Below, piece by piece: positions 18,928 to 44,600 of a DNA stretch of 64,000 bases. The stretch is from an uncultured Candidatus Saccharibacteria bacterium (GTDB lineage Bacteria > Patescibacteriota > Minisyncoccia > Phycocordibacterales > Phycocordibacteraceae): positions 3,509 to 67,508 of the forward strand of contig CAZJZB010000001.1 of the NCBI GenBank assembly GCA_964550425.1. Direction: 5' to 3'. Every line of letters starts with the position of its first letter. Positions within the stretch are counted from its first letter, which is position 1. A model generated the notes under the pieces. It made no database searches, was not told the origin of the DNA, and saw only the letters and a list, made by a program, of their open reading frames with translations. A program made the translations under genes and the position numbers.

Positions 18928-19425
18928 ATGAAAGAATTTCTTCAGACAGGATGGTTCAAGGTTGTTTTTGTTGTTGCAGTTCTACTATTGATGTGGGTTC
19001 TTACAACTAAAATTGCTGCTCATTTGGTTATTATAGTGAGTATTTATGTACTCGCCAGACTGCTAATAAAGATTGGCTCAACCACCGACGATATAGTTAG
19101 TAGGGCTAGTTGGGCAACAGGACTTTCTTTTATCATTGCTGTATTTGTTATACGTTTTCTAGAGGATGTGACAAATGTTGTCTTAAGCAGCGCAGAATCC
19201 TTTGATCTAGTCGTTCTAATAGTGCTTATTACACCAGCGTTTCTAATTATAAACGTATTGTTTAGAGGTCTCATCGGCTTTATCCAAAGATTTGTTCAAC
19301 TTCCTATTTCGATAAGTAACTTAGCATTCCAACCTCAACAAAATGTCACTAAAGAAATGGAAGCTTTTCTTATGAGTTTTTTGCTAGGGTTATTCCTATC
19401 CCTCATGATTGGAATATCAGCATAG
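18928..19425 (+). CDS. hypothetical membrane protein (AT-rich gene)
   Basis: Four or five hydrophobic helices; clearly lower GC than its neighbours. Confidence 0.5.
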   Translation: MKEFLQTGWFKVVFVVAVLLLMWVLTTKIAAHLVIIVSIYVLARLLIKIGSTTDDIVSRASWATGLSFIIAVFVIRFLEDVTNVVLSSAESFDLVVLIVLITPAFLIINVLFRGLIGFIQRFVQLPISISNLAFQPQQNVTKEMEAFLMSFLLGLFLSLMIGISA

Positions 19426-19519
19426 AAAACATACTAAAATAGTCAGGCGATGGTGATGTAATTGCAGACACGAGACATACGAGACAGCGCCTTGACAGCA
19501 CTATACCAAAGTATATACC

Positions 19520-19750
19520 TTGGTAATGACTGCGAATACCAAGACATTGCTTATGGTAAAGATTGATAAAAAGCTTAAGGAACGTGCCGCACTGGTCGCC
19601 AAGAGGCTAGGTATGCCCCTCGGTACCATGATTGTCGCGCTTATTAAACAGCTCGTTGAGCAGTGTTATATTCTGCTTCGTTTGGACAAAAAAGCCTTCC
19701 CGATCGAAGAGTATGATCGCAAGTTGCGAGAACGGCATAGCGCACGTTAA
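19520..19750 (+). CDS. RelB/DinJ-like ribbon-helix-helix antitoxin (orphan?)
   Basis: LLMVKIDKKLKERAALVAKRLGMPLGTMIVALIKQLV fits the DinJ pattern. Confidence 0.5.
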   Translation: MVMTANTKTLLMVKIDKKLKERAALVAKRLGMPLGTMIVALIKQLVEQCYILLRLDKKAFPIEEYDRKLRERHSAR

Positions 19751-19790
19751 TTGACCCGCTATATGACAGATGATACACTTTTGGAACAGT

Positions 19791-20015
19791 ATGATTACCA
19801 AAATAAAAAAACGAATAAATATCAGCGTCTCAAAGGAGGTTGACGTGGCGGTATCGTTACTTGCAAGACGTGATCGCGTTCCGCATGCGACAAAAGTCGC
19901 CCATCTTCTCTCGCTCGCTCTTGAGATTGAAGAGGATCAAGCGCTTGATGCTCTTGCGGCGAGGCGGGATACGCCGCGAGCAAAATTTGTATCGCACGCG
20001 CTGGCATGGCGATAG
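19791..20015 (+). CDS. ribbon-helix-helix antitoxin
   Basis: KRINISVSKEVDVAVSLLARR; overlaps the downstream toxin gene by 10 nt. Confidence 0.5.
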   Translation: MITKIKKRINISVSKEVDVAVSLLARRDRVPHATKVAHLLSLALEIEEDQALDALAARRDTPRAKFVSHALAWR

Positions 20016-20296
20016 GATTTACGATTCTGTATCAATCGACAATAACGCAAGAGGATATTCCGCGCATTGCAGAAACTTGGCGAGAGAAGGTTGCGTCAGC
20101 TATTGCCGACAAACTCACCACATATCCAGATGTGTACGGCAAGCCACTGCGCAGATCGCTTCGCGGGTATCGTAAATTGCGAGTTGGCGATTATCGAGTA
20201 ATCTTTCGTATTGATGCGGCAGTAGTAAAGATATTTGCAATTGCGCACCGATCCGTAGTGTATAAAATCATGGAACATCGTTCCAGAAGTGTATAA
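20006..20296 (+). CDS. type II toxin RelE/ParE family
   Basis: GYRKLRVGDYRVIFRIDAAVVKIFAIAHR. Confidence 0.7.
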   Translation: MAIGFTILYQSTITQEDIPRIAETWREKVASAIADKLTTYPDVYGKPLRRSLRGYRKLRVGDYRVIFRIDAAVVKIFAIAHRSVVYKIMEHRSRSV

Positions 20297-24676: not shown

Positions 24677-24750
24677 TGGTGCGAGTAGGGAGAATCGAAC
24701 TCCCATCATCTGATTGGCAACCAGATGTTCTACCATTGAACCATACCCGC
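24677..24750 (-). tRNA. tRNA-Gly (anticodon GCC); CCA encoded
   Basis: Acceptor GCGGGTA/TACTCGC, D-arm GTTC/GAAC, anticodon loop TTGCCAA, T-arm GGGAG-TTCGATT-CTCCC, then ACCA. Confidence 0.8.
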
Positions 24751-24970
24751 GCTAGGCGACATGATACCATGTCGCCAGTTTTTATTTCCAGTGCAGTATT
24801 CTTGAATTAGTCCGAACGCATTTCGCCGCCTGCGGCGGTAAAGAAGTCCCCCCGCGAAAATTCGGAAAGGCGGCGGGCCGCGCCGCTGATTCAGCAGAAT
24901 CACCTACTGGGTGACAATTTCAAGTTTTTCTTTGGCGGCATTCAATTATGAATTTACAAAATAAATACAA

Positions 24971-25853
24971 CTACGCCTTAGGAGTTTCAATATTTCCTCC
25001 CTCAATCGGGTTTACTTCCGGCTTTATTTCACCTGGCGGAATTTCACCCTCCGGAACTTCTAACTTTTCCTCTGGCTTAGGTTCTTCGGGCTTCTCCTCT
25101 TCCAGCTTCTGTTTTTCTTCTTCCAATTTTTTGTCCACGCGCTCGGTTGCTTCTTTGGTTAAGTCCTCATCAAATTTTTTCAAAAGGTCTGGTAATGCTT
25201 CAAGAATTTTTGGCAGTAGTTTAATTCCTTCTTTGAAAGCTTTCGCCAAAGATTGCGCCATTTCCGGATTGAGAGAACCCATTGACTTGCTTTCAACATT
25301 TCGTCCCTCAGGAGTTTTCCCGCTCTTAAAAATGCTTTCAAAGTCACGGGGATTAAGTCCCTCAAATTCCTTGAACACTTCGTCAAGTTTTTCTTGTAGA
25401 ATTTTTTCTTTTTCTTCGCGGATAAGCCGTTCTTTTTCCTGTTGGCTGATAAGTTCCTCTTTTTGTTTTTCTAATCCTTCTTGTTCGGCTTTGAGTTTTT
25501 CCAATTTATCTTTTTCTGAAAACACACTTGGCGGGTCTTCTTCTGTTGGCGGAAGTCCAAGTTTTTCTCTCGCGGCGTTTAGGGCAGATTTTGTTCCTTC
25601 AACAGATTCTGATAAACGAGTTATTTCTTCTTGCTTGGCCTTGGCTTCGCCCTCTAAATTTTTAAGCTGTTCTTCCGGCGATAATTCAGGTTCTTCTGCT
25701 ACTTGTTCTTGCCCTTCTTCTGCTTTTAATTTTTCCAATTCTTCCGGTGTAAGTTCGCCCTCCAGTTTTTTCCCAGCATTAACATCAGCACCAACCTCGT
25801 TGGGATTTAGTTCTGCATTATTCGTATTTGGAGCACCTTCAAATTTTGGCATA
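24971..25853 (-). CDS. Glu/Lys-rich coiled-coil protein (hypothetical)
   Basis: EK-rich heptads. The Ser-rich + strand ORF 24948..26213 is its codon-complement shadow. Start chosen at MPKFEG. Confidence 0.45.
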
Positions 25854-25986
25854 GTTTTTGTTGAATGTATTAAAAAATTTTCTTCCCCCAAAATTAAAAT
25901 ATGGTTCGAGCCGATGTTTTTCTCCGGGTTCTTTTGCGGTTTTGAGCGGTATTGTTCGCACTTCCATTTTAGCATAATTCCTTTCT

Positions 25987-26003
25987 GGTGCGCCCGCCAG
26001 GAC
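25987..26003. repeat. direct partial copy of the tRNA-Arg 3' end, including a CCA
   Basis: TGGTGCGCCCGCCAGGA compared with the tRNA 3' end TGTGCGCCCGCCAGGA at 26141..26156; ~135 bp apart. Confidence 0.55.
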
Positions 26004-26142
26004 CGCGATTACGCTTATCGAAACTTACAGTTTCAGTACACCTTGCGGATTTTCTGTTCGCTTCGCTTCATAAAATGCTCGCAAGGTCTTCGATTCCTGT
26101 TCGCACGCCTCCCAGGCGTGCTTCGGGGCACATTCTCGCTTT

Positions 26143-26215
26143 GCTCGTATGTGCGCCCGCCAGGAATCGAACCCGGAACCTCTTCGTCCGAAGCGAAGCG
26201 CTCTATCCGTTGAGC
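26143..26215 (-). tRNA. tRNA-Arg (anticodon TCG); CCA not encoded
   Basis: Acceptor GCGCCCG/CGGGCGC, D-arm GCTC/GAGC, anticodon stem CTTCG/CGAAG with loop CTTCGGA, T-arm CCGGG-TTCGATT-CCTGG. Confidence 0.75.
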
Positions 26216-26231
26216 TACGGGCGCGTAGCGA

Positions 26232-28199: not shown

Positions 28200-28262
28200 T
28201 TAGTTGGTGGTTATGCTAATCGGGCAGTGGTCGGAGCCGTAGACGTCAGGGTAGATAACAGC
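28200..28262 (-). pseudogene. 3'-terminal fragment of a second exodeoxyribonuclease III gene
   Basis: Encodes ...VIYPDVYGSDHCPISITTN*, cf. the xth C-terminus ...ICSDIYGSDHCPVSITIG* at 28797. DNA GGGCAGTGGTCGGAGCCGTAGA is repeated at 28223 and 28820. No upstream xth body. Confidence 0.5.
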
Positions 28263-28313
28263 TTGACTTTGAAGAGGGGAGGTAATAAAGTAAGAAAGTA
28301 AGGAATTTAATAT

Positions 28314-28589
28314 ATGCAAACAATAGAAAAAATACAAAAGATAACAAGCAAGGGGCAGATTACTCTGCCAGTGGCATGGCGACGTCACACTGGAGCACAT
28401 ACCATTTCTGTAACAACAAGAGGGAATCGAATAGAGATAGCTCCTGCGAGGCTCCAAAAAGTTTCCGAGCACACGGTTTTTAATGCCGTCCGAGATAATA
28501 ATGGGAAGGGAATAAAAATTGATAAACTCATAAGAATCTTGGAGAAATTAGTAAAAGAAGATGAACGACATAGAAAAATTACTGCGTAA
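28314..28589 (+). CDS. AbrB/MazE/SpoVT-type antitoxin
   Basis: SKGQITLPVAWRR swapped-hairpin motif. Confidence 0.6.
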   Translation: MQTIEKIQKITSKGQITLPVAWRRHTGAHTISVTTRGNRIEIAPARLQKVSEHTVFNAVRDNNGKGIKIDKLIRILEKLVKEDERHRKITA

Positions 28590-28800
28590 GGTTCATCCTC
28601 GCGATAAAGTCGTTCTGCTAGAGACCTTGCGTGCGCTCAGGCATGGGGAGTTGGACAGGTTCCGCGTGGAGAAAGTAACCGGTAGTGATTTTTATAAAGT
28701 ACGAAAAGGAAATTTCAGATTCGTTTTTCATCATGAAAACAGCGCGATTGTCGTTGACACGGTAAAGCTCCGCAATGAGAAAACATATCGCGGTTTTTAG
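28561..28800 (+). CDS. RelE/ParE-like toxin
   Basis: GSDFYKVRKGNFRFVFHHENSAIVVDTVKLRNEKTY; overlaps the antitoxin by 29 nt. Confidence 0.6.
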   Translation: MNDIEKLLRKVHPRDKVVLLETLRALRHGELDRFRVEKVTGSDFYKVRKGNFRFVFHHENSAIVVDTVKLRNEKTYRGF

Positions 28801-29564
28801 CCGATGGTTATAGAAACAGGGCAGTGGTCGGAGCCGTAGATATCACTGCATATCTCGGCTTTCTTAATATGTTTTATGAATTCGTTCGCAACGAAGAAAT
28901 AATCGATCCGCCAGCCGACATTTCTATCGCGGGCGCGCGTCTTCATATCCCAATATGTATAGGCATTCGCGGTATGAGGGTGAAAATGCCGAAATGAGTC
29001 AACGTAACCGGCGCCGACAATTTCATCTATCCATGCACGTTCTTTCGGTAGAAATCCAGTATTTTCTTCATTCTCTTTAGGCCTTGCGAGGTCTATTTCC
29101 TCATGCGCAGTGTTCACGTCGCCGCAGAATATGACCGGTTTTTGCTTGTGTAATTTCTCTGTGAATGCGAGAAAGGCGTCGTAGAAACGCATTTTATAAT
29201 CAAGACGTTCCGGACCTTGTCCGCCATTTGGGAAGTAGACATTCAAGAGCCAGAAGTCCTCATATTCGGCTCCGATAAGGCGTCCTTCCTGATCGAATTC
29301 CTTTATTCCCATACCGTAGATGACCGACAACGGCTCGATCTTTGAATAGAGGGCGACGCCGCTGTAGCCCTTTCTCACCTGCGAGGATGAAAAGAAAGAG
29401 GAGAAGCCGGCAGGGGAGAGCATTTCCTGCGAAACTTGCTCCGGATTCGCTTTGGTCTCTTGGAGGCAGAAGATATCGGGCTTGGTGCCCTTCAAAAACG
29501 ATTCCCAATAGCCATTTTTTGCGAGGGATCGCAACCCATTTACGTTCCACGAGACGATTTTCAT
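28797..29564 (-). CDS. xth: exodeoxyribonuclease III
   Basis: WNVNGLR, CLQETK, GDFN-like, SDHCPV motifs. Confidence 0.9.
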   Translation of the reverse strand: MKIVSWNVNGLRSLAKNGYWESFLKGTKPDIFCLQETKANPEQVSQEMLSPAGFSSFFSSSQVRKGYSGVALYSKIEPLSVIYGMGIKEFDQEGRLIGAEYEDFWLLNVYFPNGGQGPERLDYKMRFYDAFLAFTEKLHKQKPVIFCGDVNTAHEEIDLARPKENEENTGFLPKERAWIDEIVGAGYVDSFRHFHPHTANAYTYWDMKTRARDRNVGWRIDYFFVANEFIKHIKKAEICSDIYGSDHCPVSITIG

Positions 29565-29707: not shown

Positions 29708-30949
29708 ATGATATACTCAAAGCCGATGGACTTTTTGACAAACCAAAGAGGGTTTATTCAGATACCGCTTCTTATTGTAATCACTATAGGTTTTTTGATT
29801 TTAAGTGGTGAGGGATATGTAAGGTTTGAACAATACCAAGACCGTAAAGACAACGACGGCCTCTTCGTCAGTGAGGAATTCACGAAGAATCTTAACACTG
29901 AGTTTGCGACCGAGAATAATCAAAGCACCAGCACCCCAAAACTTTCGGAGGTTGAAAAGTTAAAAAATGAAGTGGCTGAGTTGAAATCAAAAAAAGAAGT
30001 AAATACAAAAACAAGCGAAGAACCCATCAAGAAAGCCTATGAAAAGCCCATTCTATCAAAGAAAGAGAAAACAGAAATAAATAAAGAAAAAATTATACAA
30101 ACGCCTCCCCCACAGAAGCCGGAACTATATTTGGGGAAAGACCAATTCATTTTTATACCAGTGAATTGGAATCGGGCCAAAGGGGACTTTGATATTTCTG
30201 TCAGCGCAGCAATGAAAGAATTTAAAAAGCAATATCTTGAGCTCCAGAAGCGCGCATTTCCCTTGCTGGATAGTGACGAGGCGTACTTCAATAGCAGATT
30301 TGAGGCAATCAACCTTACTAATTGCATAGATATCTGCCGTCTAGAAAGGTTGCCAACAAGCGGTTTTGATTTAGAAAACTTATGTTCAAACCAATGCCTT
30401 GATAAGAAACGACTCTATGACCCCTATCCAACCTTTATTGGTATAAGCAACGATGAAAAATTTTTTGGCAAAAACTTTCAAGAATACCTCACTATTTTAG
30501 TAGATCTGCGTAACTTGAGAAATGTATCGACCGTTGTACATGAAATCGGACATCTTTTTTGGTCTCTCTGTGACGAGTATAAGTATAGTTTGTGGCAGCA
30601 ACAAGATAAGTACTGGCCCGAATTTAAAGGAGTCAAAGGATGTCCTAATCCTTATCCGCTTACTTGTGCTGACCACCCGCAATGGATTAATAACGAAGAG
30701 AACTACCTTACATACGTGCACGGGCTTGGTCTCACCTGGGGAGGGTACAAACAGACCACTACTGACGAAAAAATTGAAAAAGAAACAGGTATCGCCTTCT
30801 GTCCTGGCGCAGTATGTACTCCGCAAGCAGGATACGATCAATGCAGAAGCACGATGGGACCCACTTTTACTCCGGACGATATACTATATTTTTTTGGAGG
30901 AAAACTAGAGACCAGAATTCCCATCGAGGCAATACTACCCCCTTGGTAA
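29708..30949 (+). CDS. secreted/membrane-anchored HExxH protein (putative zinc metalloprotease); AT-rich gene
   Basis: N-terminal TM helix, Lys/Glu-rich linker, Cys-rich C-terminal domain with HEIGHLF. Confidence 0.45.
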   Translation: MIYSKPMDFLTNQRGFIQIPLLIVITIGFLILSGEGYVRFEQYQDRKDNDGLFVSEEFTKNLNTEFATENNQSTSTPKLSEVEKLKNEVAELKSKKEVNTKTSEEPIKKAYEKPILSKKEKTEINKEKIIQTPPPQKPELYLGKDQFIFIPVNWNRAKGDFDISVSAAMKEFKKQYLELQKRAFPLLDSDEAYFNSRFEAINLTNCIDICRLERLPTSGFDLENLCSNQCLDKKRLYDPYPTFIGISNDEKFFGKNFQEYLTILVDLRNLRNVSTVVHEIGHLFWSLCDEYKYSLWQQQDKYWPEFKGVKGCPNPYPLTCADHPQWINNEENYLTYVHGLGLTWGGYKQTTTDEKIEKETGIAFCPGAVCTPQAGYDQCRSTMGPTFTPDDILYFFGGKLETRIPIEAILPPW

Positions 30950-31066: not shown

Positions 31067-32047
31067 TCAGTTGCGGCCTTTCCCGTGATATTTTTTGTGA
31101 ATTTCGCGGAGGTGGGAGTCGGTAATATGCGTATAAATTTGGGTCGTATTGATGGAAGCGTGGCCAAGGAGCTGTTGAACTGAGCGGATATCGGCGCCGT
31201 TACTGAGCAAATCAGTGGCAAATGCGTGGCGGAGCGTGTGTGGTGTGACGACATTTGTGATGCCGGCACGCGCGACGTACGACTTCAGGTGCCGTTGGAT
31301 ATCGCGCGGAATGATGCGATGCAATTTGTTCGGCCGGCCGTCGACAAAGAGCGCTTCCTCCATATCTTTTCTCGCTTTGAGATAGTCACGCACGGCCTCT
31401 TTGGCAGAAGGGGAGAGGAAAACGACACGGACTTTCTCACCTTTGCCGCGCACCGATAATTCATCGCGTGTTAAATCGATATCGGCGTTTAGTGCGCAGA
31501 GTTCGGACACGCGCAGGCCGGTCGAGAAGAGGAGTTCTAAGATTGCGCGGTCTCGCAGATACTGGATTTTCTTGTTCTCGTCGGTTTCTTTCGCCAATGC
31601 CTCCCCGGGCGCTCGCATGAGCCGCTCCAGTTCGGCGGAAGTAATGAGATCAAGTTGGCGCTCGGGAAGTTTCGCTAACTCTATCTTTTCCGGAGAAATG
31701 GCGACAATGTCGCGCTTGCGAAGGAACTTGAGAAATGCGCGCAGAGCGATCATGTAGTAATTCTGGGTCCGGCGCTTCATGGAATCGGCAGCCGTACCCG
31801 GCTGCCGATTGAGCCAAAGGCGGAATTCGCGGATATTTTGCTCGGTGATATCGCCGACGTCTTTTATCTCCATCTGTGCGAAGTAGCGGGTGAGATAATG
31901 GTCATAATTCTCGACGGTCTTCACTGCGCGCCCGCGCTCTATCTCTATATATTCCAGAAATTGCCGTTTCGCTGTTTCAACCCCCATTGATGAGTAGTAT
32001 AGCGCGATATTTGCATATTTCTGCAAGACGTGGTAAGGTAGAAACAT
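31067..32047 (-). CDS. tyrosine recombinase XerC/XerD family
   Basis: R...HTLRHAFATDLL...LLGHASINTTQIYTHI catalytic motifs (R-H-R-Y). Confidence 0.85.
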   Translation of the reverse strand: MFLPYHVLQKYANIALYYSSMGVETAKRQFLEYIEIERGRAVKTVENYDHYLTRYFAQMEIKDVGDITEQNIREFRLWLNRQPGTAADSMKRRTQNYYMIALRAFLKFLRKRDIVAISPEKIELAKLPERQLDLITSAELERLMRAPGEALAKETDENKKIQYLRDRAILELLFSTGLRVSELCALNADIDLTRDELSVRGKGEKVRVVFLSPSAKEAVRDYLKARKDMEEALFVDGRPNKLHRIIPRDIQRHLKSYVARAGITNVVTPHTLRHAFATDLLSNGADIRSVQQLLGHASINTTQIYTHITDSHLREIHKKYHGKGRN

Positions 32048-37437: not shown

Positions 37438-40400
37438 GTGCGCTATATTCTGGTAGTGAAGCATCTCGAAGGATTGAATGAAGCACAAAAGCGCGCCGTG
37501 CTCGCAAAAGACGGTCCCATTTCGGTCCTCGCCGGTGCCGGAAGCGGGAAGACACGCGTGCTCGCAACGCGTATCTATCATCTTATCCGGGAGGGTGTCC
37601 TTGCGGACCAGATTCTTGCCGTCACTTTTACCAATAAAGCCGCCCGCGAGATGCGAAATCGGGTCCGCACCATGCTCGAACCCGATGACCATGCTGTTTC
37701 CGAGCCCTTCATAGCCACGTTCCACGGCCTTGGTCGAGAACTTCTCCAAAGCTATGGGAAAAGTATCGGCGTCCCTCGTTTCTTCAGCGTGTACGATCGT
37801 GATGATTCTGAGAAAGCAATAGCCGCAGCACTCAAAGCGCTTGACGTTTCAGCGAAGGAGCTCTCGCCGCGAGCGGTTTTGAGTCGCATCTCGCGCGCGA
37901 AAGGGGAGGGAATGAGAGCACACGAGTTTTATGAGAAACACGGTCGTGGGAGTTTTGGCGTGCGCATAGCCGCGGAAGCATGGCTTCGCTACGAGAAGAT
38001 TCTTGCTGCAGAAAAAGCGCTCGATTTCGATGATCTCATCGCGCTCCCTCTAAGAATGCTTGAAGAGCATGCCGATGTTCGCGAACTCGCGCAGAATCGT
38101 TGGCGTTATATCCATATTGATGAATATCAGGATACGAATGCGCTTCAGGGACGGCTCGCGAATATGCTCGCGGCGAAACACCGGAATCTTTTTGTCGTCG
38201 GTGATATTGATCAGTGCCTTATTGCCGGGACTAAAATCGCTCTGCCTGACGGATTGAAGCGACCGATAGAAACAATTAAGAAAGGCGATTTTGTTCTTTC
38301 GAACTACGGAAGCGGAGATATGCGCCCGGCACGCGTAACACGCGTTTTTTCAAAAAAAGTATCCGGCAAGCTCACACGCATAACAACCCAGAATGGCCGA
38401 GTGCTCACGAGCACGGCAGAACATCTGCATTTCGCCGGATATCGTCCCGGTCTTACTCCCCAAATGTTTTTTACCTATCTCATGTACAAACAAGGGAAGG
38501 GGTGGAGGATCGGAGTGTCGCAGACGTATACAAAAGGGCAATACAGGCCAACGATTGGATTTCAGCAACGATGTAACCAAGAGCATGGAGATGCTGTCTG
38601 GATAATTGGAACTCACGACAACTCTCAGGAAGCGCGCGTTCTTGAGTACACGCTCTCGCTTCGTTATTCTATTCCGACTTTGCCGTTTCTTGCCCGGAAA
38701 GGAAGCGTAGGCGGATACGTGCACGATCAAAAAGTTCTGGATGACATATTTACATCGTTTGATACTGAACGTAGCGCAAAAAAGTTGCTAAAGGATAGCG
38801 GTCTTTTGAAAGAATATCCGCACCATCGTGCCCAGGCGACTCGGAGCAATCGTCGTAATATCGTTGTTGCGTTTTGCGGAGAACGTCGCGGCAAGACACC
38901 CATGCATCGAATTTCAATTGTTGGAAGCGATGACGAAGGAAAGCGGTTACTGCAGAATACAGGATTTTCAGTTCGTAGAGCTAAACTTGGTTCGAAAAGC
39001 TGGCGATTTGAAACGGCCTATAAAAACTACGGAGCTCTTTTGAACGTCATTCATCATCTGCAGAGTATTTTTCCAACAGCTTATCTCGTGCGAACGGCTC
39101 GTTTGGGTGGCAAGAAAGCACGACCCAAAGATGGGAATTCACTCCCATTCCTTCCAGCGGCAAGCGTGCGTCCCGGCATGGTGCTTTTCGATGAAGGTAG
39201 TGAGTATGATGTGGTACAGGCAGTTACTCAAATATCAGCGAAATATGTTCGTGTCTACGATCTTGATATTGAACACACTCACAACTTTATTGCGAACGGC
39301 ATTGTGACGCACAATTGTATCTATACGTGGCGGGGGGCTTCTGTGGAAAATTTGCTCGAATTCGACAAAGAATACCCCGAGGCGCAGACGATCATTCTCG
39401 AACGCAATTATCGTTCCACGAAGAATCTCGTTGACGCCGCGAATGCGGTCATAGAAAAGAATAAAAATCGCAAGGAAAAATATTCGACAACTGAACGCAG
39501 CGCGGGCGAACCCATCATTGTTCATATGGCGCGCTCCGCCGAGGATGAGGCGAGTTGGATAGCCGTGAAAATACGGGAGCTGATGGCTCGCGGTATTCCT
39601 CCCGAAGATATAGCGATACTTTTCCGTACGAATTTCCAATCACGGGCGCTTGAGGAAGGGCTGCTGCGCGCCGGTGTGCCCTATAAACTCTTAGGTACGC
39701 ACTTTTTCGCGCGCAGGGAAGTGAAAGATGTTCTCGCATGGATACGCCTTTCTATAGACCCTTCGCGCGAGGTTGATAAGATGCGCGCTGCCGCGAGCCC
39801 GCCGCGCGGCATCGGCAAAGTAACGCTTGGGAAGCTCGCGGCGGGACAGCGTTCCACGCTTCGTGCGGGCGAACAGGCAAAAGTCGAGCAGTTTGAGCGC
39901 GTCATCGGCGAGCTTGCGCGCGCAGCACTCTCGCTTACTCCTTCCGAATTCGTAAAACTCGTCATTGAGAAGAGCGGCATGCGCCGCGCGCTTGTGGATG
40001 AAGGAAGCGCCGAAGACCGCGAACGCTTTGAAAACGTAGAAGAGCTTGCTTCGGTTGCGGCGCGCCATGATTCCGTACCCGGCATGGAAGGCATCGCTGC
40101 GTTCCTTGCCGAAGCCGCGCTTGCAAGCGATCAGGATGAGTTGGATCATCCCTCGAGGCACTCGGGACAGGGGGGTGAGAAGGTGGGTGTTACACTCATG
40201 ACCGTCCATGCTGCGAAGGGTCTTGAGTTCGGCACTGTCTTTGTAAGCGGTATGGAGGAGGGACTATTCCCGCATCAGGGCATGGGCGGGAATCCGCCAG
40301 CTGGCGGAGATCGCGATGAAGAAGAGGAGCGGCGGCTCTTCTATGTCGCGATGACCCGCGCAAAAGAACGTCTTTTTCTCACGCTCGCTCGCGTACGCAA

Positions 40401-40509
40401 GATCTACGGAACCGATTACGCCGCCGAACCCTCATCATTTCTTGCCGATATCGATTCCTCACTCATGCTCTATGATGAAAGCCATGGAGAAACGATTATC
40501 GAGGCGTAG
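37438..40509 (+). CDS. uvrD: UvrD/PcrA-type ATP-dependent DNA helicase, interrupted in frame by an intein
   Basis: Walker A AGAGSGKTRVL. Motif III is split: VVGDIDQ | intein | CIYTWRGA. C-terminal UvrD domains are present. Confidence 0.9.
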   Translation: MRYILVVKHLEGLNEAQKRAVLAKDGPISVLAGAGSGKTRVLATRIYHLIREGVLADQILAVTFTNKAAREMRNRVRTMLEPDDHAVSEPFIATFHGLGRELLQSYGKSIGVPRFFSVYDRDDSEKAIAAALKALDVSAKELSPRAVLSRISRAKGEGMRAHEFYEKHGRGSFGVRIAAEAWLRYEKILAAEKALDFDDLIALPLRMLEEHADVRELAQNRWRYIHIDEYQDTNALQGRLANMLAAKHRNLFVVGDIDQCLIAGTKIALPDGLKRPIETIKKGDFVLSNYGSGDMRPARVTRVFSKKVSGKLTRITTQNGRVLTSTAEHLHFAGYRPGLTPQMFFTYLMYKQGKGWRIGVSQTYTKGQYRPTIGFQQRCNQEHGDAVWIIGTHDNSQEARVLEYTLSLRYSIPTLPFLARKGSVGGYVHDQKVLDDIFTSFDTERSAKKLLKDSGLLKEYPHHRAQATRSNRRNIVVAFCGERRGKTPMHRISIVGSDDEGKRLLQNTGFSVRRAKLGSKSWRFETAYKNYGALLNVIHHLQSIFPTAYLVRTARLGGKKARPKDGNSLPFLPAASVRPGMVLFDEGSEYDVVQAVTQISAKYVRVYDLDIEHTHNFIANGIVTHNCIYTWRGASVENLLEFDKEYPEAQTIILERNYRSTKNLVDAANAVIEKNKNRKEKYSTTERSAGEPIIVHMARSAEDEASWIAVKIRELMARGIPPEDIAILFRTNFQSRALEEGLLRAGVPYKLLGTHFFARREVKDVLAWIRLSIDPSREVDKMRAAASPPRGIGKVTLGKLAAGQRSTLRAGEQAKVEQFERVIGELARAALSLTPSEFVKLVIEKSGMRRALVDEGSAEDRERFENVEELASVAARHDSVPGMEGIAAFLAEAALASDQDELDHPSRHSGQGGEKVGVTLMTVHAAKGLEFGTVFVSGMEEGLFPHQGMGGNPPAGGDRDEEEERRLFYVAMTRAKERLFLTLARVRKIYGTDYAAEPSSFLADIDSSLMLYDESHGETIIEA
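38215..39315 (+). other. intein (Hint domain, 367 aa) inserted in helicase motif III
   Basis: Starts with Cys (CLIAGTKIAL), block B TSTAEHLHF, C-terminal block VYDLDIEHTHNFIANGIVTHN followed by a +1 Cys. The central ~200 aa is a possible degenerate endonuclease region. Confidence 0.8.
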
Positions 40510-40513
40510 ATAA

Positions 40514-42820
40514 ATGAGCTATACTCATTATATGAAAAAGGTTTTGGTTTCCATATCGATAATCGCAATAGTTGTTATTGGTGTAGTGCTCACGTCTTTA
40601 TTTTTTACTAAACCGGAAAGTATTACAACAAAAGATATTTCGTTGCCGCAAAAGACAAATAATACTTCTTGCGCTGTGATTTCATCTGCAAACAAGGTCT
40701 ATTGTTTTGGTGGACGCGATGGCAATATCGACTATGATTCCATTATCGAATACGACTTAACGAAAAAGGTTTTAGAAACAAAATCTACTAAATTACCAGC
40801 GCCAACTTTTGGTCATTCATGTGTGGAAGATTCTGGCTCAAATAAGATTTACTGTTTTGGTGGATACAGTCCATCATTCTCTTCCGCAATATTTGAATAC
40901 AACCCTCAAGATGGTGATCTAAGAACAAAGTCGGCGTATTTACCAAAAGGAACTGGCGGAATCTCCTGCGCAGAATTTCCTGAAAATCACAAAATTTATT
41001 GCTTCGGTGGATTCACAGGAGAAAGTATACCCGGACCATTAACCGAAGGTTCTTATGGAGAAGGAATCTATCGGAACGCGTTTGTGATGTCTAGTCAGAT
41101 TACGGAATACGACCCGAGTACAGACGCTATTGCAGTAAAGAAATCTGTTTTCCCTGATGGCAGAGATGACACTTCTTGTGTTTATAGTGTGAAAACTCAA
41201 AAAATTTATTGTTTTGGTGGAGGCAATGCGGACAGTGCCTTTGATCAAATTCTTGAATATGATCCATCCGTTGATAAATTGGCTATCAAGGAAGCAAAGT
41301 TACCAGCAAAAATGGAAATCCTATCGTGTGCCGAGAATTCCAATAACAAAATTTATTGCTTCGGCGGCAAAACCATCAGAGCTGATCAAAGCAGTATTCT
41401 GTATAATAAAATTTCAGAATATGATCCTGTTGCAGACCGGTTAGTTACAAGACCAATAACGTTGCCAGTCGCAATTGGCGGTCTTCAATGCGTTAAAGAT
41501 TCATCAACTCCTAACAATATACTTTGTTTTGGCGGTTGGGCAGAGAAATCATCGGATTTAATTTTCGAATATTACCGAGGAAATAAGATTTATCAGATAA
41601 TAGAATTTATTAAGAAATTTAAGCCCGTCCTACCTACTTGGCTAGAAAAAGCTTTTCAATTTGGCAGTGGTTCCTCAGATACCGTATATGACATGTATTG
41701 CGTTTCCCCGATAAAAATTCCTTTAGAGCAATCCGTTAATGCAGTTTCTGAAAGTGCTTCCCAATTATTTATTGACAAATTATATGAGAGTAGTTTGGAG
41801 GATTTAACATCTAATCTTAAAAATAAAATATATATTAATTCAGAAATACCAACCGCTCTTGCTCACATGGGAGTCAAATTGATACAAGCCGATCAATTTG
41901 ATGACGCCCTTGCTTTTCTTCAATGCGATGCTGAAAAATATTATCACTCGAGATCAATGTACATGCTTGCTCAGGTATATAAACATGGGAGCGCCGATTA
42001 TTTTCCTGGCTCGGTTATGAAAACAAAAATCGAACCAGATTTGAAGCAATCATATTTTTGGATTGCGGCCTTAATGCATATAGAATCTATAGAGAACAAT
42101 GGTCTTTTGGATATGTCGGATTCCGGCTGGAGTATTATTGGACTACTCGATTCTTTGCAGAATGATTCGTCTTTGAGTGACAATGCTCTTTTAACCAAAG
42201 AGCAGGAAGCCATCTCATTTGTGGGGAAAAGATACCCGGAAGTTCTTAATGGAGAAGCGTCTGTTTATGCCCACTCAATGCGCGCAATGATTCCTGCATT
42301 GGAAAATCCAGGAACCATTAAAAAAGAATCTAACAAACCTCCTACAGAACCAATTACTCCCAATATTGTCGTCGGTGCATATGTTAATAAAACGCACGGA
42401 TTAAGTATGCGTGTACCCACAGGATGGGCTTTTGATGAGAGCAACGCATACACGGTGTCTGGTGGACTTGTAGGAAGTATTGGAACTTTCTACGACCCAA
42501 AAATTGGTAGGGGTAGTGATAATGCATCTGCTCCGGATATATGGATACACTTTGGTTCTGCTAACGGGGCAGATTTGGATACCATTACGACGGATTTCCC
42601 AATAGAGAGTAAAAAAGTAATGATCTTAAAAAACGGTCTGCAGGCAGAAATTATCGTTTGGACATATACCGACCAAAAAAGGGGGCCTCGAAAACTTTTA
42701 AAACTAAACGTTATAAAAAACGATATCCTCTATTCTGTTGTGGGAGAATCGCTTGAATCAGACTGGGTGAAATATGGGAAATTAATTGAATCATCTGTAT
42801 TAACGTTCGATTTCATTTAA
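40514..42820 (+). CDS. membrane-anchored Kelch-type beta-propeller repeat protein with a C-terminal helical domain; AT-rich gene
   Basis: Six repeats of N/HK(I/V)YCFGG spaced ~50 aa apart; N-terminal TM helix. Confidence 0.6.
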   Translation: MSYTHYMKKVLVSISIIAIVVIGVVLTSLFFTKPESITTKDISLPQKTNNTSCAVISSANKVYCFGGRDGNIDYDSIIEYDLTKKVLETKSTKLPAPTFGHSCVEDSGSNKIYCFGGYSPSFSSAIFEYNPQDGDLRTKSAYLPKGTGGISCAEFPENHKIYCFGGFTGESIPGPLTEGSYGEGIYRNAFVMSSQITEYDPSTDAIAVKKSVFPDGRDDTSCVYSVKTQKIYCFGGGNADSAFDQILEYDPSVDKLAIKEAKLPAKMEILSCAENSNNKIYCFGGKTIRADQSSILYNKISEYDPVADRLVTRPITLPVAIGGLQCVKDSSTPNNILCFGGWAEKSSDLIFEYYRGNKIYQIIEFIKKFKPVLPTWLEKAFQFGSGSSDTVYDMYCVSPIKIPLEQSVNAVSESASQLFIDKLYESSLEDLTSNLKNKIYINSEIPTALAHMGVKLIQADQFDDALAFLQCDAEKYYHSRSMYMLAQVYKHGSADYFPGSVMKTKIEPDLKQSYFWIAALMHIESIENNGLLDMSDSGWSIIGLLDSLQNDSSLSDNALLTKEQEAISFVGKRYPEVLNGEASVYAHSMRAMIPALENPGTIKKESNKPPTEPITPNIVVGAYVNKTHGLSMRVPTGWAFDESNAYTVSGGLVGSIGTFYDPKIGRGSDNASAPDIWIHFGSANGADLDTITTDFPIESKKVMILKNGLQAEIIVWTYTDQKRGPRKLLKLNVIKNDILYSVVGESLESDWVKYGKLIESSVLTFDFI

Positions 42821-42892
42821 TACAGAGCCAAGATACTTTGTCCCCAACATGATGATTATCTTAACTTGCGCATCGTGTGATACACTCATCTC

Positions 42893-43237
42893 ATGGATGC
42901 CATTCTCTTTATCGTAGGTATAGTAATGCTGATAAAAGGTAATATACAAGCTACCTCACACAGTGAGATTTCTAAGACAGCCGGAAGAGTGCTCGGTATT
43001 TTGTTACTATTGCCGGGTCTCAATGCTTTTCTGTACGGATTTCTCTCAAAACAACAAGGAGTCACTTTTTGGAATACATTAAATCAACCGTGGGTAGAAT
43101 CAGAAATCTTTCCGCTAGGGGTAGATCTTCAATCGGCTTTACTGGTTTTAGCGTTTGTAGCGATTTTGATCACAATTTTATTTTTTCGTAAACCAATCGG
43201 CATAGTTCCATCGCCGACACCTTCGACTCTTCTTTAA
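42893..43237 (+). CDS. small hypothetical membrane protein (AT-rich)
   Basis: Three hydrophobic helices. Confidence 0.4.
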   Translation: MDAILFIVGIVMLIKGNIQATSHSEISKTAGRVLGILLLLPGLNAFLYGFLSKQQGVTFWNTLNQPWVESEIFPLGVDLQSALLVLAFVAILITILFFRKPIGIVPSPTPSTLL

Positions 43238-43294
43238 AAACATTTGAATTTAATTAAATTGCATCCAGAATCACAGGTGATACACTTTTGATAT

Positions 43295-43537
43295 ATGGCT
43301 ACAACCAAAGAACGGATTCTGGTAACGCTGACGTCTGAAATGGCGAGGGCCGTGCGTGGTTACGCAAAACGAGACCGTGTATCGCAGGCATCTGTCTTTA
43401 CGCGCGCTATGCGTGCACTGATTGAAGATGAAGAGGACAAATATTTATCGGCAATAGGAGACAAAATTGCCGAGAATCCCGGGAAATTTATTTCTTCACG
43501 TGAATTCTGGAAACGGGTAAACAAGCGTCGCGCATGA
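43295..43537 (+). CDS. ribbon-helix-helix (CopG/ParD-like) antitoxin
   Basis: ERILVTLTSEMARAVRGYAKRDRVSQASVFTRAMRALIE. Confidence 0.6.
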   Translation: MATTKERILVTLTSEMARAVRGYAKRDRVSQASVFTRAMRALIEDEEDKYLSAIGDKIAENPGKFISSREFWKRVNKRRA

Positions 43538-43800
43538 GTCGTTATTCCATTAGTTTTACTAAACGAGCTGAAGATGATGCCGTTCGTCTCGATGCTTTTA
43601 TATTGGAACGCGCCAAATTGGCGATAGGAACAAAACTTGTGGTTGACCCATTCCGTTTCGGTAAATCGCTTGGATATTCTTTGCGCCATGTACGAGCGCT
43701 TCGAGTCGGCGACTGGCGTGTACTGTATCAAATTTCTGGCGCTGCAGTCATAATCCTCACAATTCGACATCGCAAGCAGGGTTATAGTGACCTCGCATAA
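43534..43800 (+). CDS. type II toxin RelE/ParE family
   Basis: LRVGDWRVLYQISGAAVIILTIRHRKQGY; 4-nt overlap with the antitoxin. Confidence 0.7.
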   Translation: MSRYSISFTKRAEDDAVRLDAFILERAKLAIGTKLVVDPFRFGKSLGYSLRHVRALRVGDWRVLYQISGAAVIILTIRHRKQGYSDLA

Positions 43801-44600
43801 TGCGCGCTAAAAAGAGTTTGGGCCAACACTTCCTGATGCACGCGCGCATCGCGGAGAGGATCGCGATGGTCGCGAATCTCGCGCACGATGACACCGTACT
43901 GGAAATAGGTCCGGGGACAGGGATGCTCACCCGCGCGCTGTTGCAGCGCGCGGGGAAGGTGGTGGCGATTGAAGCGGATTACGAACTTTTTTTGAAGTTG
44001 CACATTGAGTTTGCAAGTGAGATCGCGGATGGTCGCCTCAAACTCATACACGGCGACATCCGCAAATATCCACTAAATACTGCTATAGCAGAAAATAGTG
44101 GATACCATGTAGTGGCGAACATCCCCTACTATCTCACTGGCGAAATATTTCGAATGTTTCTTGAATCATCGAATCAACCAAGTGCGATAACGCTTCTTGT
44201 GCAGAAGGAAGTTGCCGAGCGTATCGCTCGCACAAAAAAGCCCCTCGACTTCGCTCGGGGTAAAGAAAGCATCCTCTCGCTCTCGGTGAAGGCGTACGGA
44301 ACAGCGAAGTATGAATTTACTGTACCGCGTGGGGCCTTTAAGCCCGCACCGAACGTTGACTCTGCAGTACTCACCATTCGTGATATTTCACGGAAAAACT
44401 TTTCAACGCTTGAGGAAGAACGGCGGTTCTTCGCTCTTATTCATGCGGGGTTCGCGCATAAGCGCAAATTCGTGCGGAATAATCTCGTTGATGCTGGTCT
44501 CCCTACCGGGGACATTCCCCTGAAAGCCCGCGCCGAAGACCTGTCGCTCTCTGTATGGATTTCCCTGAGCAAAATCGAAGGGCTTGGTATAAGTAGATAA
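43800..44600 (+). CDS. rsmA: 16S rRNA (adenine1518/1519-N6)-dimethyltransferase
   Basis: SLGQHFL, EIGPGTGMLT, NIPYY motifs. Contains a copy of the nested-palindrome repeat in frame. Confidence 0.85.
   Translation: MRAKKSLGQHFLMHARIAERIAMVANLAHDDTVLEIGPGTGMLTRALLQRAGKVVAIEADYELFLKLHIEFASEIADGRLKLIHGDIRKYPLNTAIAENSGYHVVANIPYYLTGEIFRMFLESSNQPSAITLLVQKEVAERIARTKKPLDFARGKESILSLSVKAYGTAKYEFTVPRGAFKPAPNVDSAVLTIRDISRKNFSTLEEERRFFALIHAGFAHKRKFVRNNLVDAGLPTGDIPLKARAEDLSLSVWISLSKIEGLGISR
44065..44108. repeat. nested-palindrome dispersed repeat, copy 2 (inside the rsmA coding sequence)
   Basis: AATATCCACTAAATACTGCTATAGCAGAAAATAGTGGATACC. Confidence 0.7.

Follow-up and report, generated by a model that had tools for sequence, protein, structure and literature searches.

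The question raised by this locus is how an AT-rich gene for a membrane-anchored Kelch-repeat protein came to lie between uvrD and rsmA in an ultra-small bacterium of groundwater type belonging to the candidate phyla radiation (CPR), and what its product may do. The locus is part of a 64-kb stretch of contig CAZJZB010000001.1 (positions 3,509 to 67,508), which as a whole is called the window below and to which all window coordinates refer. We have found that the gene occupies a segment of foreign composition, 2.8 kb long, which is missing from the same junction in all the relatives compared, and the region is very probably an acquired islet. A toxin–antitoxin (TA) cassette next to the islet proved to be independent of it.

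Composition, borders and setting of the islet

The initial annotation, made from the sequence alone, described a sharp drop in base composition over 40514–43237, and measurement bore this out. The guanine-plus-cytosine (GC) content of this segment is 0.384, which is essentially the minimum among all 2.7-kb intervals of the 64-kb sequence. Non-overlapping 2.7-kb intervals have a GC of 0.510 ± 0.031 and the lowest of them elsewhere reaches 0.421, so that the segment has z = −4.06. Its dinucleotide deviation δ* is 106 vs 56 ± 20 elsewhere. In a 400-nt sliding interval, GC falls from 0.59–0.60 in the 3′ part of uvrD to 0.36–0.41 across about 40400–43400 and rises again to 0.51–0.53 in rsmA. The GC of third codon positions (GC3) is 0.317 in the Kelch gene and 0.330 in the open reading frame (ORF) of 114 amino acids (aa) that follows it, most genes having about 0.51–0.65. 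Within the Kelch gene, GC is 0.38–0.40 in each of the three domains, and this uniformly low value suggests that the gene arrived as a unit.

The junction was compared in 64 relatives whose loci span uvrD and rsmA. More than 60 genomes carrying the labels Kaiserbacteria, Paceibacterota or Parcubacteria encode RsmA orthologs of 53–78% identity, and the order LysM/M23 peptidase, uvrD, rsmA, orf338, orf708 is conserved; the identity of the flanking genes is 53–89% (uvrD segments up to 89%, RsmA up to 78%). Neither the Kelch gene nor the 114-aa ORF is present at the junction in any of the 64 loci, and a tblastn search with the whole Kelch protein against 1.1 Mb of the relatives' sequence found no paralog or remnant. 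The gap between uvrD and rsmA is at most 25 nt in about two dozen relatives, and lengths of 1–20 nt are frequent. At least seven different types of content were found among the 64: a minus-strand gene of about 115–120 aa in 10 loci, large membrane proteins in 6, ribbon-helix-helix (RHH)/ParE pairs in 5, a 337-aa protein in 2 and other singletons. Since the contents are so varied and every relative lacks the Kelch gene, the junction counts as a variable spot at which this gene was gained. The foreign, horizontally acquired insert proposed initially is thus upheld, as neither uniform GC and codon usage nor vertical inheritance of the gene was found. The minus-strand gene (MDNRKLTQRDFEHGPARE...; L002, 9615–9977, minus strand, and 9 further relatives) is absent from the window.

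The borders were defined by blastn of the window against the locus of the closest relative that bears the TA cassette, L003, which gave two collinear high-scoring segment pairs, the first ending at 40480 and the second starting at 43256. The features that frame the islet are as follows:

37438–40509, forward strand: uvrD/PcrA-type helicase gene, conserved left flank, syntenic in 64 relatives (UvrD-helicase, E = 1e-71; UvrD_C, 8e-65)
40481–43255, forward strand: segment of 2775 bp inserted relative to L003 (gap between the blastn segment pairs)
43800–44600, forward strand: rsmA/ksgA gene for 16S rRNA dimethyltransferase, conserved right flank (Pfam RrnaAD, E = 1e-40)

The inserted segment holds the last 29 nt of uvrD, which encode a tail of the native type (...SHGETIIEA*), then the Kelch gene, remnants of an arm of the TA cassette described below and the 114-aa ORF. 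No integrase was found in 40481–43800 (ORF list, Pfam) and no tRNA gene within 14 kb of the islet, the nearest being 14 kb away. A search for flanking direct repeats gave none that was convincing, the best being a 28-nt, 79%-identical match within the sequence coding for the transmembrane (TM) helix. The islet thus resembles a classical integrative genomic island in composition and in its presence/absence pattern but not in integrase, tRNA or repeats, and it was not classified as one. No structured RNA was found in it with Rfam at E ≤ 1, and a scan with promoter and terminator consensus sequences was uninformative, promoter-like sites being rarer than in shuffled sequences. A viral origin was considered and rejected: a scan of IMG/VR with the Kelch protein found no relative, the PHROG matches were to generic Kelch and no phage genes lie nearby. 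An anti-phage defence function was likewise rejected, as PADLOC had no match for any of the four proteins.

The Kelch protein and its relatives

The Kelch gene starts with an ATG 4 nt past the uvrD stop codon, with a GAGG 9 nt upstream of the start, and from this arrangement we infer that it is probably read through from uvrD. Its product combines a TM anchor, a six-blade Kelch propeller, Sel1-like repeats and a PsbP-like domain:

40514–42820, forward strand: gene for the membrane-anchored Kelch/Sel1-like/PsbP-like protein, 768 aa (ORF list, GC3 0.317)
40535–40603, forward strand: N-terminal signal-anchor TM helix, aa ~8–30 (hydropathy peak 2.82; AlphaFold2 helix)
40619–41575, forward strand: six-blade Kelch β-propeller, aa 36–354 (Pfam, AlphaFold2, Foldseek against the PDB, motif positions)
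41666–42313, forward strand: Sel1-like/TPR-like α-helical repeat domain, aa ~385–600, an unnamed family of Kaiserbacteria and other CPR proteins
42371–42817, forward strand: PsbP/DcrB/LpqN-like α/β domain, aa ~620–768

The N-terminal segment has a hydropathy of 2.8 over aa 4–35, is helical at aa 2–30 in the AlphaFold2 model and carries lysines on its N-terminal side. According to the positive-inside rule, the protein would have an N-in/C-out topology with the remainder outside the cell. The propeller behind this anchor, which had been read from the repeats initially, was recovered with Pfam, AlphaFold2 and Foldseek. Six [YL]CFGG motifs lie at aa 63, 113, 162, 232, 281 and 337. The number of repeats given initially stands, whereas their even spacing holds only roughly (50, 49, 70, 49 and 56 aa), because blade 3 has an insertion of about 20 aa, also seen in the alignment with the homolog P0006. 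Scores against Pfam models exceed the cut-offs for PF24681 (85 bits vs 50), Kelch_1 PF01344 (62.3 vs 20.1), PF24981 (62.2 vs 50) and PF13964 (55.7 vs 25.3). The predicted local distance difference test (pLDDT) score of AlphaFold2 is above 90 over aa 1–360, including the propeller, and Foldseek matched the model to six-blade Kelch domains (KEAP1, NS1-BP, designed SAKe6) with target TM-scores of 0.8–0.85 and E ~1e-16. In the model, six four-stranded blades close as a propeller. No catalytic family was matched by the 768-aa protein in Pfam and other profile libraries or in a PDB sequence search.

The C-terminal half, initially taken for one helical domain of about 350 aa, consists of two domains: the helical character holds for about 215 aa of the Sel1/TPR-like type, whereas the last ~150 aa form a PsbP-like α/β domain. 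No profile library or PDB sequence search recognised this half, and its relatives were found by an exhaustive HMMER search, with about 60 related cluster representatives for the helical part and about 30 for the terminal part. In the full-length AlphaFold2 run its pLDDT was below 50, compared with 86 when a domain-specific alignment was used. The modelled helical part shows the antiparallel helix-pair repeats of the Sel1-like fold and the terminal part the α/β sandwich fold of PsbP. The Pfam models of Sel1 and TPR gave no match for the 768-aa protein at E ≤ 10, and a homolog, P0156, had a faint Sel1 match (0.008). The protein itself also has no match to the Pfam models of PsbP, DcrB and LpqN; it is the relatives of its terminal part that match these three families. 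Among those found by phmmer are P0168 (PsbP, 3e-33), P0180 (4e-27), P0135 (2e-5) and P0182 (LpqN, 6e-6). Four proteins (P0135, P0136, P0137 and P0141) carry the Sel1-like and PsbP-like pair without Kelch, and P0122, from a Kaiserbacteria genome, has the Sel1-like domain alone and a host-like GC of 0.519. The relatives of the Sel1-like domain, P0122 among them, are 45–51% identical.

In a set of 5.8 billion clustered proteins, the full-length Kelch protein stands as a singleton. The TM and Kelch module recurs only in P0006 (49% identity, same blade-3 insertion), which comes from a 0.1-µm fraction of groundwater; its helical region is more diverged, it has no PsbP domain and its gene has a GC of 0.362. 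The initial statement that Kelch propellers are rare in bacteria was not borne out for this subtype, the search giving at least 163 matches. Among the 120 matches listed, a minority carry source names (CPR, DPANN, Planctomycetota, Nitrospirae, Acidobacteriota). A scan of metagenomes for nearer full-length relatives gave only Kelch proteins of 35–39% identity with other architectures. The same subtype is joined to other surface-type domains on contigs of low GC (0.35). It is encoded on an archaeal contig with L15e, proteasome and exosome genes (P0017, 45% identity) and on a CPR-like bacterial contig (P0023, 42% identity).

Like other extracellular Kelch proteins (PF24681, PF01344), the protein has six repeats of about 50 aa with xCFGG and EYDP motifs and, by prediction, the six-blade fold. 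Homologs of the same subtype are joined to cadherin-like or VCBS-type repeats, a parallel β-helix, tail-fibre domains or a prepilin N-terminus, whereas the combination of TM, Kelch, Sel1-like and PsbP-like parts was found only in the 768-aa protein. It differs from PsbP, DcrB, LpqN and MTC28 (PsbP-Mog1 fold) in scoring on none of these Pfam models and in carrying the domain as the tail of a multidomain protein; no lipid or protein ligand can be deduced. A literature search for Kelch proteins in CPR or DPANN organisms gave nothing relevant. The most economical view is that a modular surface protein of CPR/DPANN type was transferred from an organism of low GC in the same wider community.

Two side observations concern these relatives. 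The Kelch genes on the contigs L088 and L089 belong to a gene type that may be generally mobile or intrinsically AT-biased. Upstream of the P0006 gene, at 1–172 of the short contig L080, a perfect 15-bp inverted repeat (GAAAGAAAAACACTC ... GAGTGTTTTTCTTTC) surrounds TTGCAT-N16-GTGATAT, which resembles the promoter-like box of the TA cassettes described next.

TA cassettes and duplicated gene ends

The initial annotation placed a second AT-rich membrane-protein ORF and then an RHH/RelE pair behind the Kelch gene. Both are present, together with elements around them:

42820–42886, forward strand: intergenic, two degenerate copies of the TA-cassette left arm (sequence; alignment with L003 and L005)
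42893–43237, forward strand: AT-rich ORF of 114 aa with three hydrophobic segments (hydropathy)
43256–43294, forward strand: conserved left arm/promoter-like element of the RHH/ParE cassette, identical GTGATACACTTTTGATATATGG in L003, L005, L013, L029 and L034
43295–43537, forward strand: RHH-type antitoxin gene, 80 aa, overlapping the toxin gene by 4 nt, product 89% identical to the L003 copy
43534–43800, forward strand: ParE/RelE-family toxin gene, 88 aa, its stop codon overlapping the start of rsmA

The toxin matches PF05016 ParE_toxin (40 bits vs cut-off 23, E = 5.9e-10) and scores below the cut-off on TIGR02385 RelE_StbE (21.5 vs 27.9). The antitoxin scores are below the cut-offs as well (RelB NF046040, 17.8 vs 50, E = 0.003; DUF6290, 17.3 vs 27, E = 0.006). 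Judged by its sequence, the pair is probably a type II TA module. Initially it had been placed beside the AT-rich island and linked with it through a suggested common mechanism of acquisition, a reading that has to be corrected. L003 carries the same cassette in the same place (89% and 73% aa identity) and has no Kelch gene, and altogether five Kelch-less relatives (L003, L005, L013, L029 and L034) have it at the junction. As the breakpoints with L003 also lie upstream of the promoter-like element of the TA genes, the pair does not belong to the islet; it is an independent, older mobile cassette with a promoter-like element of its own.

In this element, TTGCAT (43259–43264) is followed by a 16-nt spacer, TG (43278–43279) and TACACT (43281–43286), with the ATG 8 nt further on, and it can be written as TTGCAT-N16-GTGATACACTTTTGATAT. 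The six cassettes at the junction share TTGCA(T/C), a spacer of 16–18 nt, (G)TGATACACTTTTGATAT and the ATG. The layout suggests a −35 box, an extended −10 box and a near-leaderless start, and thus a promoter or operator role. A second RHH/ParE pair lies in the window at 19770–20296, and its ParE (20006–20296) is 41% identical to the one beside the islet. In both RHH/ParE cassettes of the window (19740–19800 and 43256–43297), TTGACC or TTGCAT is followed by a 16–17-nt spacer and TGATACACTTTTG, with the antitoxin ATG soon after. The antitoxin ORF start listed at 19770 probably lies in the promoter-like box, and the ATG at 19791 is more likely to be the true start.

The left arm also encodes a gene end. 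In L003 and L005, uvrD ends with codons of the arm (...YDETNLHTEPKVIHF* and ...YDETDLHSEPQVIHF*) rather than with the native ...YDET.GE.IIEA*. The displaced original tail can still be recognised behind ParE in L005 (E = 1e-7), and this suggests that the cassette inserted into the 3′ end of uvrD with target duplication. In the window, the uvrD tail is of the native type, the breakpoint of the insertion (40480) coincides with the codons at which the tail is replaced in L003 and L005, and 43262–43294 with the stop codon 43295–43297 encodes KLHPESQVIHF*, which is left over from a substitute uvrD tail like that of these two relatives. Of the 33 relatives in which the gap is sizeable, L005 alone has a duplicate of the uvrD tail that is recognisable in the protein sequence. 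The substitute C-terminus in relatives reads ...LH(T/S)EP(K/Q)VIHF* (L005, 740–1425; L003, 9400–9470). Like known type II RHH-ParE/RelE modules, the pair beside the islet has short antitoxin and toxin genes of 80 and 88 aa with a 4-nt overlap and its own promoter-like element, and it is patchily distributed among close relatives, as a mobile module would be. It is unlike them in that the left arm replaces the last ~11 uvrD codons in some relatives and in that the L005 cassette is bracketed by duplicated uvrD ends.

Remnants of the arm are found inside the islet too. A first decayed copy, ATACAGAGCCAAG, lies at 42820–42832, directly after the Kelch stop codon, and a second one (...ATGATGA..ACTTGCGC..GTGATACACT) at 42848–42886, ending 6 nt before the ATG of the 114-aa ORF. 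The exact 10-mer GTGATACACT occurs twice in the 64 kb, both times inside the islet. The match after the Kelch stop is a 12-mer with a window-wide E of 0.25 and is suggestive only. The 114-aa ORF has no homolog besides itself in 5.8 billion proteins and no match in Pfam, NCBIfam, PHROG or PADLOC; it may be young or spurious. The possibility that its 3′ end is a decayed copy of the uvrD 3′ end is kept only as a hint, as the collinearity between the two at the DNA level is weak, with a z of 2.1 at best.

The pattern of an AT-rich gene with a TA module was said to recur at 18928–20296 and 29708. At the former site it is indeed seen: an AT-rich ORF for a multi-pass membrane protein of 165 aa (18928–19425; GC 0.361, GC3 0.295; no Pfam match) lies between clpP and the second RHH/ParE pair. 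In the related Kaiserbacteria locus L081, the clpP–rny interval holds a GIY-YIG gene instead, so that this junction varies as well. At the latter site the claim holds only loosely. There is an AT-rich gene (29708–30949; GC 0.402) for a 413-aa protein that has a hydrophobic stretch near its N-terminus, contains HExxH and matches Peptidase_M64 (IgA peptidase) weakly (2e-4, below cut-off), and there is a TA pair, but the pair lies upstream (28314–28800) with xth in between. This pair, a MazE/AbrB-type antitoxin with a RelE-like toxin, is bracketed by a duplicated 3′ end of xth, the gene of exonuclease III. The xth 3′ ends lie at 28200–28300 and 28797–28870 (minus strand), the intact one reading ...DIYGSDHCPVSITIG* and the remnant ...DVYGSDHCPISITTN*, and 23 of 23 core nucleotides are identical (tblastn E = 2.5e-8). 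The HExxH gene adjoins a gene for an XerC/D-type tyrosine recombinase (31067–32047).

The common acquisition mechanism suggested for these sites did not emerge: no integrase, tRNA or flanking repeat was found, and the two AT-rich membrane ORFs preceding the two RHH/ParE pairs show no relatedness to each other; what the two RHH/ParE cassettes share is the promoter-like element. The sequences may reflect repeated insertion at the 3′ ends of housekeeping genes with replacement of the gene end, which we take as a lead and not as a result. We know of no description of a TA cassette bracketed by duplicated ends of its target gene or replacing the uvrD end. As a lead, these gene-end-replacing cassettes are more unusual than the Kelch islet.

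Origin and role of the islet

The genomes of CPR bacteria are tiny, attachment to other cells is believed to be their way of life, and the determinants of partner choice are barely known. The explanation that we regard as probable overall is that of a small acquired islet without integrase at the variable uvrD–rsmA junction of a CPR chromosome (Kaiserbacteria/Paceibacteria). Its cargo would be one real gene, encoding a type-II (N-in) membrane-anchored extracytoplasmic protein with three non-catalytic binding scaffolds, about 730 residues of which would be outside the cell. The Sel1–PsbP module, which is shared with envelope proteins native to CPR bacteria, is likely to attach to the envelope of the cell itself, and the Kelch head would provide specificity by binding an external protein or glycan. 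Binding of a ligand, a partner cell or the envelope would be the most likely role, that is adhesion or recognition on an episymbiotic ultra-small cell, and from the modelled folds we have moderate confidence in a function in surface binding or adhesion. The gene most likely came as a unit from a low-GC donor of CPR type, by uptake of DNA that then recombined at the 3′ end of uvrD.

Several points weigh against this explanation. Mobility genes, a tRNA and flanking direct repeats are lacking, and the best full-length relative is 49% identical in the Kelch half only. The source sequence is a metagenome-assembled genome and the 114-aa ORF is possibly no gene. The Kelch genes of L088 (archaeal) and L089 (CPR-like bacterial) are 4–7 GC points below their own contigs, and the AT bias could therefore be partly intrinsic to this gene type, although amino-acid composition by itself would hardly account for a GC3 of 0.317. 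The putative function is deduced from the folds, and the homologs have no conserved operon partner.

The Kelch gene might instead be ancestral at the junction and have been lost in all sampled relatives, its AT-richness reflecting local mutational bias or selection on a surface gene. In favour of this, Kelch genes of related type have a slightly lower GC than their hosts, and Kaiserbacteria possess native relatives of the Sel1-like domain. The gene would however have to have been lost dozens of times independently, or once in an event older than all 64 relatives, the GC3 is low (0.317 vs 0.55–0.6) uniformly across the gene with sharp borders, and 1.1 Mb of the relatives' sequence holds no paralog or remnant, so that this origin is already disfavoured and strikes us as very remote. 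An artefact of assembly or binning, in which a contig of a low-GC organism was joined chimerically into a Kaiserbacteria genome, might be suspected from the metagenomic source, the abrupt GC change and the singleton protein. A separately assembled 4.1-kb Logan contig from SRR8863434 (L001) runs in identical sequence from the 3′ end of uvrD through the complete insert and the TA genes into the 5′ part of rsmA, and this identity across both junctions argues against a chimera, as do the ATG placed 4 nt after the uvrD stop and the TA-arm remnants interleaved with AT-rich ORFs, which are not expected of a random chimera; we consider an artefact extremely unlikely. The propeller could also be imagined as an enzyme, either a sialic-acid mutarotase of the NanM type or galactose-oxidase-like, in view of a match to Pfam NANM (PF24996; 44.5 bits, E = 1.2e-11) and the label 'N-acetylneuraminic acid mutarotase' given by JGI to several homologs. 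The labels are generic COG transfers, however, the NANM score lies just under the curated cut-off of 45 and far under those of the generic Kelch models, and there is no NanM/YjhT chain among 33 PDB sequence matches at E ≤ 1e-3. NanM is a soluble, periplasmic protein of a single domain, unlike the anchored protein with its two further scaffold domains. An enzymatic role is highly improbable.

A more serious alternative, though in our view an unlikely one, is site-directed arrival at the 3′ ends of uvrD and other housekeeping genes, each cassette bringing a substitute gene end and pushing earlier ones downstream. The Kelch gene, the 114-aa ORF and the TA pair would then be three serial insertions at an att-like point after the ...YDE(T/S) codons, made by a recombinase acting in trans or by homology-facilitated illegitimate recombination after transformation. 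Its appeal comes from the uvrD C-terminus encoded by the arm in L003 and L005, the displaced native tail in L005, the breakpoint at the same codons, the KLHPESQVIHF* remnant before the RHH gene and the arm remnants before the 114-aa ORF, as well as from the xth duplicate around the MazE-type pair and the XerC/D-type recombinase encoded in the window. It is weakened by the single occurrence of the uvrD-tail duplicate, in L005 of 33 gapped relatives and in none with other cargo types, by the marginal 12-mer after the Kelch stop and by the lack of a recombinase linked to the cassettes; moreover, most of the variety at the junction is accounted for by plain homologous replacement among the relatives. 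Still more doubtful is the far-reaching form of this idea, in which the uvrD stop region of Kaiserbacteria would be an att-like landing point where integrase-less cassettes pile up serially with substitute uvrD 3′ ends and remnants, the xth signature would indicate a lineage-wide, undescribed mode of insertion in CPR bacteria, and the Kelch protein would be a strain-specific determinant of host attachment.

A strain-specific and recently gained anchored Kelch protein is a reasonable candidate for an attachment determinant, and the case illustrates that surface proteins of CPR bacteria are assembled from a few modules (Kelch, Sel1-like and PsbP-like) shuffled across CPR and DPANN lineages. The uvrD–rsmA junction, a sharply delimited and densely sampled locus with at least seven contents in 64 genomes, could be used for studying gene gain without obvious mobile-element machinery. 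For Patescibacteria, genomic islands and horizontal gene transfer, mostly within the phylum, are reported to be frequent, and DNA is proposed to enter by way of pili and competence (PMC12455944). The islet is similar to the islands described there in being atypical, strain-specific DNA in a streamlined genome with a probable donor within or near the radiation and a possible uptake route through pili and competence. It differs in its size of only 2.8 kb, its one real gene and its lack of integrase, tRNA and repeats, and in its position exactly at a gene boundary in an operon-like array beside an independent TA cassette. The case is one of clean but ordinary horizontal gene transfer into a CPR bacterium. 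The protein combines its domains in a unique way, whereas the parts and the phenomenon are known, and current views remain unchanged.

Two further features of the window were noted. An ORF of 421 aa at 24948–26213 (GC 0.428, GC1 0.34, no Pfam match) lies between tRNA-Gly (24677–24750) and tRNA-Arg (26151–26224), overlapping the latter, and the highest dinucleotide deviation of the window (δ* 125 at ~24001) falls in this region, which may be a foreign or non-coding stretch. The uvrD gene contains an intein of about 364 aa (aa ~262–625, nt ~38221–39312; Intein_splicing, 5e-12; weak Hint) with CLIAGT...VTHN|C boundaries and a GC of 0.474 vs 0.54–0.56 in the exteins; among the ~64 syntenic relatives, an intein at the same uvrD position is apparently present only in L027, L029, L037, L051 and L054.

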